NCBI RefSeq assembly: GCF_055900595.2
Contig: NZ_CM148325.1
DNA: 64,000 nucleotides
Strand: one strand, 5' to 3'
Each line of letters begins with the position of its first letter. Position 1 is the first letter of the stretch. A model generated the notes under the pieces. That model made no database searches. It was not told the DNA's origin and saw only the letters and a list, made by a program, of their open reading frames with translations. Shown one piece after another: positions 15,336 through 25,009 of this stretch. A program made the translations under genes and the position numbers.

Positions 15336-18300
15336 TTATCCAGCGATAACATAACTCCTAAGGTCATTACCCGGGGCAACAGCTCGCGCTCGCGTGTTTG
15401 CCAGCCGTTCAACTTGCTGCGGTACTCGCAGAGCAAAATCAAAGAAGGTGTCTTCAATACAGCGCCAGTAGCTAAGCCCCATGTCGAGCAGGACATAATG
15501 CTGACTGCCATCGCTGAAGGTGACTGTCAGTTCTCGTCCATGCTCCGTACTCTGGTTATCCCCCGTTAACCAGCTAATTGCTCCCGGCCACGCAGGCCCC
15601 AGATATCCTTCTTCAAGTAAAGTGGTCACAACCTGCTGACGATCTTCCTCATTAAGCCACGCGTTATAGAGAGCGTTGTGTTGGCGAGAGTTGTAATCCA
15701 ATTTTTTGACGCAAACAGTGAGGCTGGCGCGTTCCGCCATTCCCTGTTCAACCAGCTCGGTTAAGATTTCACCTAACATACGCGCCGTGAATGGGCTATT
15801 AAGATAACGATCGCTGTACTCAACATGCGTTATCTCTTTGTGGCGGGTAAATGCCTGCTTCCAGCCAGCGTGCTGTTGCGTGACTAACGACCAGAAACGC
15901 GAACCAAACCCTTCCAGCGGCCCGTCCAGTTGCTCGCAGAGGTTGATGCGCACCGCCCCGGTGGGTAAGGCGGGCAGTAAATCTTCTGCACTTAAGGTCT
16001 GACCCGAGAAGGTTTTTCCGGACGTTCCTTTAAGTGTCACTACTGGTGAGGACGCACTTTGTCCCCATAATTCACCAGGTGCAACGGTAGCGCTGTCGTC
16101 TGCGGCCCACTGTTGGCTTTGCCCTTCGCGAGTCACCTGCGCAAGCCAGCGCCCCTTTCCTTGCATGAGTTGCGCAGTGGCAATGGATTTCACTTGTAAG
16201 CGTCCTCCCGGCATCGCCGCCAACGCGGAAAGCTGATGTCTGGAGCTATCAGTTAAGTTTTCCAGCGGCGTGGCCACCAGCAACTCAACATTCCCACCGG
16301 AGGAGGCAAACTGGAGCAACTCTTTAAATAATGGCCATTGGGCAAAGTCCCACTGTTCCTGCGGCCCCGCAAGAACCAGCGAGCAGGAGTCATAAATCTC
16401 GCTGTTCAGGCATTGCGCAATACGTAAACTCAGAGGGTTAGTTTCAACCCGGCTACCATCGACGAAGTACTGATATTCTGGCGCGAGGTTAAGTCGCTGC
16501 AACCGTACATTGGTAAGCAGGGTTAATGCATGGTGACGATCTAATCTGTTGACATAATGCTGACTGTCGTAGCTGAGCAAGCAGTGGTGACAGAATTTAT
16601 CGCAACTGCAATCGAGCAATTTTCTGGCGTAATTAAAGACATCAGCCCAATGGTCGATCAATTGCACTGCATAACCTGCACCACCCGCATTATTGTCGTA
16701 AATGAAGATGGAATATCCGGTATAGCCATTGATATCGCGCGCTTGCTGCGTCGTCACGCCCAGCTCAGTATTTTCGATACCCAATTTATGCGCTAACCCT
16801 TCACGCAAAGCGACCGCAAGGGAACGCGCGGCAACCTCATCACGGATCAACAGGCCATTATCATCATTGAGTTGCAGCTCAACCATATCTGTACGACTGC
16901 TATACCCCAACCACAGATCTTTATGCACATGACCGTGGCACAATTTATTGCTCCCCTGACGATCGTTACTGCCCCCTCGCAACAGGTAATGCGTATTTTC
17001 CCGCTCTGGGTTCTTTAGATTTTCAGGGGTACGCTGGGGTTGAGTTTGAGATTCTGCCCGACCACATGAGAGGCAAATTGCGTAGCCGTGCCCAAATTCC
17101 CCTTCACTGAAGTGGAACAATTCCCCACTATGGCTAAAACGGTAACGTCCTAGCCCAGCATCGGGTAAAGAAACCCACACCGAAGACGGTACAAGAACAC
17201 GTGGATCTTTCCAGGGAAGTTGTGCAGGCATGGATACATCATTATGTGCCTGATAACGAATATCTGTCGCAAAACCAACAGGCTGTAAATAACGCTTCAC
17301 ATCAAGTTGCTGTATATCCGCTTTGCAGTGACTACATTCGACAGGATGGGTAGCACTGGTTGCCCCCGCACCACATTTACGGCAATGCCAGAACCACGGA
17401 ATATGATGATCGCCTGACAGCTCCTGCCCGCTGGCAAGTACCTTGCCAAGCATAATGCCCGAGGAACGATATACTTTTCCGCCCAATACCACATCTGCAC
17501 CAGGCGCATACTCGCGTAATGCTGTAGGTAGATCACGGCAGGGCAATTTTTCAATACGACGAGAAAAGCTTTCTCCCCCTTCATTAGGGTCAGCCTGAGT
17601 AGCTTTTATTGCGCGACGTTTTTCCAGCTCATCTGCCGTCAGATAATTGAAATTGACGACACCAACCGGGAAACCATGCCCTGGCAGGAACGCTTCACTA
17701 ATGAGTTTAGAAAACAGATATGCACCGCGATAATCACGAAGCTGATAAGCGATGGCTTTACCTGCTGGCGTTTCTTCCCACGCGCTGTTATCCGCTTTCA
17801 ACGCTTCGATATTTTCCAACAGTATCGCAAGTTGGCTTCTCCAGCGGATATCAACCTGCTGCATCATTGCTTGTGTGCGGGTCAAGAGCTGGGTTGCCGT
17901 CAATGACATCAGGACGGTTCCCTGAGTAAGGCGTTTAAGTTTATCCGCCAGCTGATCGGCCTGGTTATTTAACCAATGGAGAAAACGAAGACACTGGCTC
18001 TCATCACCTTCAAAGAACCATTTGCAACTCAGTTTTGTCGCATCAGGAACTTCAGCTCGTAAAAACAGACCTAAAACCAGGGCATTAACATGTCGTTGAA
18101 CAATACTGCTGCTCCCAAAACGAACCCGTGGCGCACTGGCAGTAGTGTTGAACGCCCAGAGGGGGTCTTTGAATACCTCCATTCCATGCGCCGTGTTTTT
18201 ACATAACGTAATGGCAGCAGATGCACTCTCTCCACGTCGACCCGCGCGGCCTGCACGCTGCAAATAATTTGCCGGAGCTGGAGGAACGTTGTTCATTGCC

Positions 18301-24600: not shown

Positions 24601-25009
24601 CACCTTCACAAGCCAGTGTATGCAGATAACCCGAAGCTTGCCCCAGGTTTCTTATCTTTCTTTTCCAGTAGCGAATGCCATCATTAACCAGCTTCTGTCG
24701 ATGAACATACGGAACTTTCCAGTCAATAGAATCTAAAATTGTGTCCCATTTAGGGTGTCCGACCGTATGAGTCCGGCGGATAAACTCTGCGGCATATATG
24801 CTAAATAGAACATCGCTATAGGAAATGAATATCGTTCTTGGATAACTACGGGGGGCATATGTACGCAGTAGTTCTGCCAAACTTTCGTACTCTGTATCAG
24901 TACAACGGTAAGCATATAACGCCCGTCCATCAGCTCCGGATAATGAACGGCGACTAAAAAACATGTTAAGCCATTGCAAAAGTGGGTTAACTGGAGTTTT
25001 CACAAGCAA
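21650..25009 (-). CDS. DruH-like protein (Druantia type III partner), 1119 aa, no recognisable catalytic motif
   Basis: Large ORF overlapping the downstream DruE-like gene by 10 nt; assignment is by gene context and size only. Confidence 0.45.
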   Translation of the reverse strand: MLVKTPVNPLLQWLNMFFSRRSLSGADGRALYAYRCTDTEYESLAELLRTYAPRSYPRTIFISYSDVLFSIYAAEFIRRTHTVGHPKWDTILDSIDWKVPYVHRQKLVNDGIRYWKRKIRNLGQASGYLHTLACEGGLPIRMIENESGYLITYFRRIYQALRGQASQYPAAKIAQKLGDTIPVTMQNELVYEIAGEFCETLCRLLSEHPPQSSDPVSALRKLSPDWHLQLPLVLPEANAAEIVRRLLSQSSEIRSASSLQVERIWVDVDDSWYCDARFRFPATMRTEQLTSLFECNIQPEQTRLIISGKWRNGGARLAMLSRYEQQDWRVELLPIAMQKLSGADAMAEISLSLHEGPILLGHTIPKGGYELTEELPWVFEAMNESESQLKLVGMGSVSSRLNALFISLPKNSHLDISGEGEFDIPRLLKNSERSLTKISGVFSVVLHDGAVCTIRTQQLYDSAIEYYIKSTEVELVKSDYPVHRAWPKIGWKKDLQYGIVPEKELFWRSIRSGNNAWYSVASEMPKGQIEVRRIVNDEVLFSGKVVVLPADFDINIIPESAQQGIIMLSGITDTRIDKYTNNEKVTLKSDYSQNECAIYYNSSQMLENTVDLRVSWKDGSNLKLLLPKPVSGGRFVTNDGSVHFDGVASIAHLHGIDAELLTMSCAGRGYLNIELLDENPVAEKFRYLHADLPLLSGRNDKLQQISLYENYNLLNSMLACAWNSNSTLCVDFYSDRFGKDKATLNIKRYDGSFIEHDQGLLVDIKNSVVFPANRIDELVVDAISLKDPGLHKSLLKKDEFAYDLSALNVQDSPWLIVGKLDGTARIAPVIKWMLPVLQTNDLLLNALCEADPEQRKKKFNELIFEIDNNPLQNYCCLLTEYIKKYKMNNGLSLLDLDLFRGISSNYRVVVQLLISSCLSGDSDTIYDIQEELPFSWGWIPVSIWKDVFQKCWAYLEKQINDKTLALHILQPFIAFMNHRAHIDRRLAPIANMLLTYSESLPTGCDVLPTVSREQFNEAKQMLLRNPDSFGRISIFPKELWSSAITPELKSVFNKLWIEDKYHSRLEKRFNLMLVAALLTQKDNNLIHQLSALFEFHYQQAPQQLGVIYQYYFEQAGVCH

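Follow-up and report, generated by a model that had tools for sequence, protein, structure and literature searches.

The druH and druE genes and their assignment

The sequence analysed is a window of 64,000 nt from contig NZ_CM148325.1 of assembly GCF_055900595.2, in which the ORF list confirmed the two minus-strand reading frames of the original prediction, 21650..25009 (1119 aa) and 15336..21659 (2107 aa), lengths well above anything expected by chance. The first gene in the operon, druH (21650..25009), starts with a TTG codon, is low in GC (GC3 0.32) and encodes a member of the YjiT/STY4851-ECs_5259 family; the product of the second, druE, is a YprA/MrfA-like SF2 helicase that bears PLD-like domains at its C-terminal end. 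In RefSeq the pair carries the labels “STY4851/ECs_5259 family protein” and “DEAD/DEAH box helicase.”

An overlap of 10 nt between the two genes had been predicted, a value that arose because the longest ORF was taken for druE. The overlap is most likely only 1 nt. The ATG at codon 4 of the long ORF stands at a normal Shine-Dalgarno spacing (AGGAG, then approximately 10 nt), the first ATG being placed only 1 nt past AGGAG; RefSeq starts druE at codon 4 in both reference genomes, the published residue numbers of E. coli DruE are offset by exactly 3 from the long ORF, and the N-termini of most DruE homologs align to its positions 3–7. The construct of PDB 9tu7 apparently corresponds to the longer form, unlike the RefSeq start. 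A start at codon 4 yields a DruE of 2104 aa (15336..21650, minus strand) and the 1-nt overlap, a TGATG stop/start arrangement (21648..21652, minus strand) which was read from the sequence, with which the RefSeq gene models concur, and which suggests that translation of druH and druE is coupled. Just 3′ of the druE stop, a consensus scan and the sequence itself gave hairpins and T-runs (15290..15328, minus strand) which weakly suggest a terminator.

Judged on its sequence, the locus is an intact E. coli Druantia type III pair, a system which is already known. DruH matched the PADLOC profile DruH3 (PDLC00041) at 2544.7 bits over residues 3–1119, and DruE matched DruE3 (PDLC00037) at 2173.4 bits over residues 9–2105, scoring far lower against the DruE profiles of types I, II, and IV (572, 356, and 341 bits, respectively). 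The similarity to DruH and DruE profiles on which the original prediction had been staked is thus decisive, with both matches full length. DruH also belongs to NCBIfam NF038336 (YjiT/STY4851 family; 987.8 bits, cutoff 150) and is near-identical to PDB 9tud, deposited as “DruH” (2552.9 bits), while DruE is near-identical to PDB 9tu7-9tuc (4863 bits). The druHE DNA is 99.3% identical to that of E. coli ATCC 8739, and alignment to the proteins of this experimentally validated reference, a check proposed at the outset for DruE, left 8 amino acid differences in DruE and 17 in DruH. Among the published contact and catalytic residues of DruE 27 of 29 are in place, as are all five DruH pocket residues checked by program.

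The remaining features of the type are also present. DruE is of approximately 2000 aa, with a YprA/MrfA-like SF2 DEAH core, a DUF1998/MZB Zn module and its best match in type III; DruH is of approximately 1100 aa and of the YjiT/STY4851 family; and, as had been foreseen, the two genes form a two-gene unit, adjacent on the same strand with a stop/start overlap. Among the flanking genes, which are components of Zorya II and ARMADA II, none was identified as a gene of type I (druA-D) or of type II (druM/F/G), and the sole neighbor with matches to Dru profiles is the YprA paralog of ARMADA II, whose match to DruE3 is partial (345 bits). The pair is present in approximately 10% of complete E. coli genomes, and phage resistance that needs both genes has been demonstrated on proteins approximately 99% identical to these. 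As the best explanation of the whole, the locus is very probably a functional chromosomal Druantia III-A anti-phage operon with a helicase-based direct defence. The name Druantia adds a label here without new biology, and the consequence for genome annotation is small, a name being added to the generic RefSeq labels.

The surrounding defence island

The locus belongs to a described Zorya II/Druantia III/ARMADA II array adjoining tRNA-Leu, an array to which enterohaemorrhagic E. coli owe a large share of their resistance to phages; its part in that resistance bears on phage therapy. Between druH and the divergent zorA lies an AT-rich intergenic region of 211 bp (25010..25220; GC 0.32) with promoter-like sites, consensus matches only, on both strands. 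Beyond it zorA2, zorB2, and zorE form one operon (25221..28694, plus strand), all named accordingly in RefSeq and all matching PADLOC profiles over their full length (1001.5, 346.3, and 584.7 bits), which is the make-up of Zorya type II. On the other side, family matches and gene order identify ARMADA type II (1..15112, minus strand): a BrxHII/DrmD-like SNF2 helicase at 12254..15112 is followed by a PglX-like methyltransferase at 7329..12251 and a YprA-like helicase-nuclease at 988..7329, and 1..991 encodes the N-terminal part of a helicase of the UvrD family (GajB-like according to the literature), all on the minus strand. This is the ARMADA II order of BrxHII-like helicase, PglX-like methyltransferase, YprA-like helicase-nuclease and RelE-GajB-like helicase, the last gene, whose RelE-like part is putative, being cut by the window edge. 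A tRNA-Leu(CAA) found by ARAGORN (34526..34610, minus strand) has its 3′ end toward the island, and the annotation of strain EC42405 places core genes (ahr and the idn genes) beyond it. An orphan gene of 681 aa had no match in PADLOC, NCBIfam, Pfam, PHROGs or PDB.

A DISARM system was also weighed as a reading of the downstream genes but was rejected: none of the genes was assigned to DrmA, DrmB or DrmC, the profiles named DrmA gave secondary or partial matches on helicases only, and the DrmD-like match (349.7 bits) was under the NCBIfam cutoff of 610. Type IIG profiles best fit the downstream methyltransferase.

It might be argued that druHE is a module of one nine- or ten-gene Zorya-Druantia-ARMADA machine, or of a DISARM-like system, and is non-functional alone. 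The three systems are similarly frequent (545, 590, and 527 of 5426 E. coli genomes, respectively), they co-travel in two tRNA contexts and show synergy, and DruE is a paralog of the ARMADA helicase. However, druHE protects E. coli MG1655 when cloned by itself, and a deletion strain with Druantia III and without ARMADA II was still protected, at least modestly, against 3 of 66 phages. Between druE and the ARMADA genes lie a terminator-like element and a promoter-like site, and the missing DrmA, DrmB, and DrmC and sub-cutoff DrmD-like match speak against the DISARM version. Published single-system cloning has largely refuted the idea, which we regard as highly improbable.

Even less credible is the view that druHE has decayed into a remnant without function, left in an island that is immobilised. 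No integrase was found in the window, a search of its positions 1–35000 revealed no direct repeat of the att type corresponding to the 3′ end of tRNA-Leu, and pseudogene fragments lie close by. Both genes are nonetheless intact, as their full-length alignment with solved structures as well as family profiles indicates; neither ORF is frameshifted, the catalytic residues checked are all in place, and there are few substitutions relative to functional alleles, so this view was rejected.

Domains and conserved residues of DruE and DruH

The larger protein had been described as a DEAH helicase of approximately 2100 aa with Cys clusters, a description which is borne out by a Walker A motif (GSGKT), a DEAH box, 38 Cys, among them six CxxC pairs, and matches to the Pfam domains DEAD, Helicase_C, and MZB. 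All DruE domains lie on the minus strand. RecA1 (20766..21368; PF00270, E = 5.4e-24) carries the Walker A K121 and D251-E252-A-H (2104-aa numbering), the RecA2 core (18231..18446; PF00271, E = 1.8e-12) follows after an insertion of approximately 770 residues, and the MrfA-type Zn-binding domain (MZB/DUF1998; 16578..16817; PF09369, E = 7.1e-12) explains part of the Cys clusters, with CxxC pairs at 1423, 1439, 1526, and 1687.

No PLD domain was matched in DruE by Pfam; three independent cryo-EM studies concur on the PLD fold of its C-terminus, the dispute among them concerning activity. With names from the literature, a first PLD-like domain (“PLDi,” 15966..16553) and a second (“PLDa,” 15339..15965) were placed with approximate boundaries. 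A word-indexed search with the last 405 aa of DruE yielded little but fragments of genes, and homologs were collected instead by an exhaustive HMMER search, which showed that the C-terminal extension of approximately 400 aa has homologous counterparts in 56 full-length DruE proteins. In PLDa, Y1945, D1947-R1948-Y1949, P1953, H2037-x-R2039, and D2056-x-G2058 are invariant, and this pocket (DRY…HxR…DxG) is conserved at 96–100% in 57 distant DruE homologs of approximately 28% identity; its motif, HxR…DxG, differs from the canonical HxK(x)4D. The first PLD-like domain, with few invariant polar residues, is not so conserved across the same 57 homologs, which argues that the PLDa pocket is under selection. 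The residues mutated in the Pseudomonas aeruginosa protein (Loeff, Chanez, Jinek 2026), D1917/R1918/Y1919 and H1999/R2001, correspond to the invariant DRY and HxR residues of PLDa found here.

DruH had been taken for a protein of approximately 1100 aa with no recognisable motifs, which holds in so far as its 1119 aa had no match in the Pfam-A library used, but not with regard to its membership of the NCBIfam family named above. Its invariant polar residues cluster in an all-helical N-terminal domain (residues 1–256; 24242..25009, minus strand), where Y32, Y34, R35, E75, R79, R117, E135, and G136-P139 are invariant family-wide; Loeff et al. placed defence-essential residues of DruH in this domain. 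No fold relative of it was found among solved nucleases or known folds. The Ig-like 5/C-terminal region (21758..23020, minus strand) contains the published ssDNA/ATP pocket, formed by Y670, N672, H689, Y733, D735, R1031, H1062, R1064, and K1067. All nine are present in the alignment, with N672, Y733, D735, R1064, and K1067 also confirmed by program. The pocket residues are conserved in only 2–10 of 30 DruH homologs, and the loop bearing R1031 is deleted in a distant clade, being missing from 18–19 of the 30; as judged from these alignments, the pocket is confined to the enterobacterial DruH clade. Relative to ATCC 8739, the divergence per residue is approximately fourfold greater in DruH than in DruE (17/1119 versus 8/2104), the DruH substitutions being scattered over all domains without concentration in the Ig-like domains.

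Mode of action and relation to known systems

The mechanism had been called poorly understood, which is outdated for the system as a whole, as papers of 2025–2026 give cryo-EM structures and biochemistry of essentially this DruH/DruE pair, but still applies to the effector step, on which the studies disagree. It is agreed that DruE is a 3′-5′ YprA/MrfA-like helicase which acts on ssDNA/duplex junctions without cell killing. Dimers and activity on 3′-tailed or forked DNA are reported, and defence in E. coli and Pseudomonas is described as direct, non-abortive and dependent on both genes; the need for both genes, the helicase polarity, the dependence on ssDNA, dimerisation and the non-abortive outcome have all been demonstrated on proteins approximately 99% identical to those of this locus. 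What is disputed is whether the DruE PLD domain and DruH are nucleases. For the Pseudomonas system, PLD-dependent, ATP-driven DNA degradation, a 3′-5′ exonuclease activity of DruH and a 1:1 DruE-DruH complex on forks were reported, and for E. coli, cleavage of long DNA by DruE and nicking by a DruH dimer; yet in the hands of two groups neither of the E. coli proteins showed nuclease activity that was reproducible. A mycobacterial type III system is reported to be abortive and to have the minor tail protein Gp25 as its trigger.

The explanation that we favour begins with DruE dimers, which load on exposed ssDNA at ssDNA/duplex junctions or forks and translocate 3′→5′ using ATP, unwinding phage replication or recombination intermediates; sealed host DNA escapes. 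DruH is required and acts on the same intermediates, and defence is direct, the phage being cleared and the cell not killed, as in E. coli and Pseudomonas. In the most likely completion of this scheme the second PLD-like domain would then cut the DNA that DruE has unwound, and the conserved N-terminal domain of DruH would engage or process DNA ends. The nuclease activities of PLDa and DruH, and likewise the cue sensed by DruH, are matters that we infer here and that are contested. Besides the negative nuclease assays and the reported dispensability of the PLD domains, the missing Pfam PLD match, the non-canonical PLDa motif, the lack of a solved nuclease resembling the DruH N-terminal domain, the disagreement of studies on substrate preference (3′ or 5′ overhang) and the abortive mycobacterial system count against this explanation. 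From the conservation patterns we tentatively suggest that the core chemistry may reside in an unconventional HxR…DxG phosphodiesterase pocket of PLDa, together with the DruH N-terminal domain as a new DNA-end-processing or -binding module, and that the ssDNA/ATP pocket may be an enterobacterial regulatory addition. If true, this would reconcile the conflicting reports of 2026.

A possible but rather doubtful alternative is that DruE unwinds from free 3′ ssDNA ends and that DruH, held off DNA by ATP, binds the displaced strands when ATP falls locally, so that the phage genome is immobilised uncut and any cutting is left to ZorE or others. Hu et al. detected no nuclease activity of DruH, stated that the system has no nuclease module and proposed that it works by unwinding and ssDNA trapping by DruH; their DruH-ssDNA and DruH-ATP structures share one pocket, in which R1031A, H1062A, and R1064A each cut defence by approximately 90%. 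Himpich et al. saw no nuclease activity and reported that, with the phages they tested, defence did not need the PLD domains at all, and every residue of the ssDNA/ATP pocket is present in the DruH studied here. However, the restriction of the pocket to enterobacteria, with the R1031 loop lost from most homologs compared, means that trapping cannot be the mechanism ancestral to the family, a family-invariant PLDa pocket would be hard to explain if it were functionless, and PLD-dependent cleavage was measured by two other groups.

Equally doubtful in our view is a DruH whose main role is to sense late structural proteins of the phage (baseplate or tail) and which licenses DruE, DNA structure then being the substrate of the response and not its trigger. 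Its Ig-like and baseplate-J-like folds, its weak co-immunoprecipitation with a homolog of T4 gp7 and the positive selection on its Ig-like domains, all from the literature, are consistent with such a role, as are the activation of the mycobacterial system by Gp25 and the roughly fourfold greater divergence of DruH over DruE. Yet the authors of that evidence call it indirect themselves, the substitutions relative to ATCC 8739 are not focused on the Ig-like domains, and forked DNA alone suffices for DruE-DruH assembly in vitro. Returning to a core chemistry in PLDa and the DruH N-terminus, the conservation results suggest residues whose mutation could settle the dispute over the DruE PLD domain and DruH as nucleases.

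Compared with the Druantia III-A systems of E. coli ATCC 8739, EDL933, and ECOR19 (PDB 9tu7-9tud), the genes, their order and their overlap are the same, and relative to ATCC 8739 the pair is only an allelic variant at a different site, tRNA-Leu/ahr (as in O157 strains) instead of tRNA-Phe/cad. The type III system of Pseudomonas aeruginosa (Loeff, Chanez, Jinek 2026) is a distant ortholog of the same architecture, in which PLDa (DRY, HxR) and the mutated N-terminal DruH residues are those conserved here. It is reported to prefer a 5′ overhang, unlike the E. coli studies, which report a 3′ overhang, and its H1830 has no obvious counterpart in the first PLD-like domain of E. coli, as judged by eye without alignment to the Pseudomonas protein.

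Within the island, the ARMADA II helicase-nuclease (988..7329) lies on the same strand as DruE, is paralogous to it from RecA1 through RecA2 to the Zn module (30% and 23% identity) and belongs to a system with documented synergy, but has an HNH-like segment (a ZorE-type match) where DruE has PLD-like domains, and is partnered by a methyltransferase and an SNF2 helicase instead of DruH. MrfA/YprA of Bacillus subtilis (PDB 6znp; match 2.3e-19) shares the SF2 DEAH core, the MZB domain and the 3′-5′ polarity; unlike DruE it is of 751 aa, lacks PLD domains and large insertions and acts in DNA repair, partnered by MrfB, a DEDD-type exonuclease that has no relation to DruH. DISARM (DrmA/DrmB/DrmC with DrmD or DrmE and a methyltransferase) has in common with Druantia III the logic of a helicase with DUF1998/MZB and activation by DNA ends, whereas its helicase, DUF1998, and PLD (DrmC) are separate proteins, and Druantia III, unlike DISARM, is without a methyltransferase or known modification-based self-marking.

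Identity and boundaries of the gene pair

The two large open reading frames of the original prediction are both present on the minus strand of the window: druH (21650..25009), encoding 1119 aa from a TTG start, and druE (15336..21659 as the longest ORF), encoding 2107 aa. End-to-end alignment with family profiles and solved structures excludes a chance origin for either. The predicted DEAH helicase with cysteine clusters is borne out: besides the DEAH box, DruE has a Walker A motif (GSGKT), six CxxC pairs among its 38 cysteines, and Pfam matches to DEAD, Helicase_C and MrfA Zn-binding domains; an insertion of ~770 residues separates the RecA-like halves of the protein. 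The description of DruH as having no recognisable motifs holds for the Pfam-A library used, in which there is no match, but not for NCBIfam, where it is a member of NF038336 (the YjiT / STY4851-ECs_5259 family), scoring 987.8 bits where the cutoff is 150.

The 10-nt overlap initially described between the two genes is an artefact of choosing the longest ORF. Behind the AGGAG Shine-Dalgarno sequence of druE, the first ATG follows after only 1 nt and the codon-4 ATG after ~10 nt; RefSeq models in two reference genomes start at this second ATG, published E. coli DruE residue numbers are the long-ORF numbers shifted by exactly three, and homolog N-termini mostly align to long-ORF positions 3-7. 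As all of these favour codon 4, the junction is likely to be a TGATG stop/start with an overlap of 1 nt, giving the 2104-aa form whose numbering is used here. A TGATG stop/start overlap is a classic arrangement for translational coupling.

The assignment to Druantia type III was checked against the PADLOC profiles, and since DruH3 (2544.7 bits) and DruE3 (2173.4 bits) both match over essentially the full protein, similarity to the DruH and DruE families is evident; the other DruE profiles score far lower on DruE (type I 572, type II 356 and type IV 341 bits). Of 5426 complete E. coli genomes, 545 carry the 9.7-kb segment with the pair. Its identity to the segment of E. coli ATCC 8739 is 99.3%, and from the proteins of that strain DruE differs at 8 of 2104 residues and DruH at 17 of 1119. 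Near-identical PDB chains exist for DruE (9tu7-9tuc, 4863 bits) and for DruH (9tud, named DruH, 2552.9 bits). All five DruH nucleotide-site residues listed by Wu et al. are present, as are 27 of their 29 ATP/DNA contact residues of DruE, the exceptions being position 97 (Q; K in the paper) and position 1536 (T; N in the paper). Neither position is among the differences from ATCC 8739, whose DruE therefore shares Q97 and T1536, and the discrepancy is due either to a different allele having been used by Wu et al. or to an error in the text of that paper. The identity of druHE is near certain: it is a known system that has been studied intensively, represented here by an allele ~99% identical to those used experimentally.

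The defence island and its neighbours

The island holding druHE adjoins the 3' end of tRNA-Leu(CAA) (34526..34610), beyond which lie the core genes ahr, the idn operon and lptFG. Divergent from druH is a Zorya type II operon (zorA2, zorB2 and zorE; 25221..28694, plus strand), which is 100% identical to that of several E. coli genomes; the 211-bp spacer between druH and zorA2 is AT-rich with promoter-like sites on both strands. Within 15336-28694, the druHE operon is a compositional chimera, and druH, together with Zorya, may be of other origin than druE or may have been exchanged independently of it. GC content is 0.40 in druH, with a GC3 of 0.32 similar to the 0.30-0.32 of the divergent zorABE genes; the GC3 of druE climbs from 0.43 in its 5' third to 0.60 in its 3' third, resembling the ARMADA type II genes (0.55-0.58).

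Directly downstream of druE on the same strand is a complete ARMADA type II gene set (1..15112), comprising in order a BrxHII/DrmD-like SNF2 helicase, a PglX-like methyltransferase, a 2113-aa YprA-like helicase-nuclease and a UvrD-family helicase, of which only the start lies inside the window before its edge. This order agrees with the published definition, in which the fourth gene is a RelE-GajB-like helicase. The 223-bp gap from druE to this set contains terminator-like hairpins and a promoter-like site (consensus matches only), which fits druHE being a separate transcription unit. The 2113-aa helicase carries a ZorE-like HNH segment near its C-terminus (residues 2021-2096) and is a distant paralog of DruE, to which it is 30% identical in RecA1 and 23% identical over the stretch that runs from RecA2 to the Zn module inclusive. 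A direct repeat of 45 nt (6974-7018 and 21262-21306; 84% identity) is a trace of this paralogy, corresponding to the Walker-A coding segment common to both genes; it is also a possible recombination substrate.

Among the 5426 complete E. coli genomes, Druantia III was counted in 545, Zorya II in 590 and ARMADA II in 527, in line with the conserved tripartite array published on satellite-phage-like elements which insert at tRNA-Phe or tRNA-Leu. Of the places where these systems match in the E. coli collection, a minority are on plasmids rather than chromosomes (Druantia III, 17 of 551; ARMADA II, 16 of 536; Zorya II, 5 of 593). The island is of the tRNA-Leu/ahr type, and because there is no integrase within the window and no att repeat or copy of the tRNA-Leu 3' end in its island part (1-35000), it resembles the "immobilised" tRNA-Leu-type element (PMC12458937).

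Between Zorya and the tRNA, short ORFs at 28765-29513 correspond to fragments that strain EC42405 has annotated as a frameshifted kelch-repeat / nanM pseudogene. Within 29521-31180, a 216-aa HNH endonuclease (minus strand) is divergent from a phosphorothioated-DNA-binding restriction endonuclease (plus strand; NF045808, 437.9 bits), and the pair constitutes a modification-dependent restriction module of the island. An orphan gene of 681 aa follows (31799-33844, minus strand), with a very low GC of 0.33 and a GC3 of 0.26. Searches of PADLOC, NCBIfam, Pfam, PHROGs and PDB sequences gave no hit for its product, and the 5.8-kb segment around it is found at no less than 80% coverage in 289 complete E. 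coli genomes. The gene is a candidate uncharacterised defence gene.

Residue conservation and the disputed mechanism

The mechanism can no longer be called poorly understood, as type III Druantia has been treated in a 2026 journal paper and in preprints of May 2026, and related preprints of 2025 deal with YprA-family helicases and with O-island 172. Defence needs both genes, cloned druHE suffices, and the response is direct and non-abortive in E. coli and Pseudomonas; for the mycobacterial type III system, abortive defence triggered by a minor tail protein has been described. DruE forms dimers and is an SF2 helicase of the YprA/MrfA-like kind; it requires ssDNA exposed at a junction and translocates 3' to 5'. 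Hypermodified T-even DNA evades the E. coli system; the Pseudomonas system, by contrast, restricts T2 and T6. The general mechanism, in which DruE loads at junctions and, as a 3'-5' helicase that cannot do without its partner DruH, clears intermediates of phage DNA, is well supported by this literature.

The dispute concerns nuclease activity. In Pseudomonas, Loeff et al. describe DruH as a 3'-5' exonuclease whose active surface they assign to the helical domain at the N-terminus (R22, K28 and E64), with DNA degraded by DruE via a PLD pocket (D1740, D1917, R1918, H1999, R2001 and others) once a 1:1 DruE-DruH complex has formed on forked DNA. For E. coli, Wu et al. report cleavage by DruE and nicking by DruH dimers, and in their view DruH senses late structural proteins; Hu et al. 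detected no DruH nuclease activity, found ssDNA and ATP to compete for one pocket that lies between the C-terminal domain and Ig-like domain 5, and state that Druantia III lacks a nuclease module. Himpich et al., using the ATCC 8739 and EDL933 proteins, could not reproducibly detect nuclease activity and report that defence does entirely without the PLD domains.

In an alignment of 30 DruH homologs with identity down to 18%, the polar residues that are invariant or nearly so are concentrated in the N-terminal domain (Y32, Y34, R35, E75, R79, R117 and E135), in which a TLACEGGLP motif is also conserved. The ssDNA/ATP pocket residues are retained in just 2-10 of the 30 sequences, although an aromatic-Arg pair one position from R1064 is kept more widely, and the loop bearing R1031 is deleted in 18-19 of 30, the alignment there being well anchored by an adjacent conserved motif.

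For DruE, the last 405 residues served as query in an exhaustive HMMER search that gave 713 hits (E-value up to 0.001), and the query was aligned with 56 full-length homologs of 24-32% identity. The first PLD-like domain has almost no invariant polar residues. In the second, Y1945, D1947, R1948, Y1949, P1953, W1998, H2037, R2039, D2056 and G2058 are 96-100% conserved and match by spacing the DRY and H1999/R2001 of the Pseudomonas protein. This is strong evidence for purifying selection on the second pocket; a pocket with no role would be difficult to reconcile with such conservation, which itself leaves the nature of that role unspecified. On conservation grounds, a nuclease would probably complete the mechanism. 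The motif concerned, HxR...DxG, differs from the canonical HxK(x)4D. Compared with what is known of Druantia III, the only addition made here is this conservation pattern, which suggests specific mutants relevant to the disagreement between laboratories.
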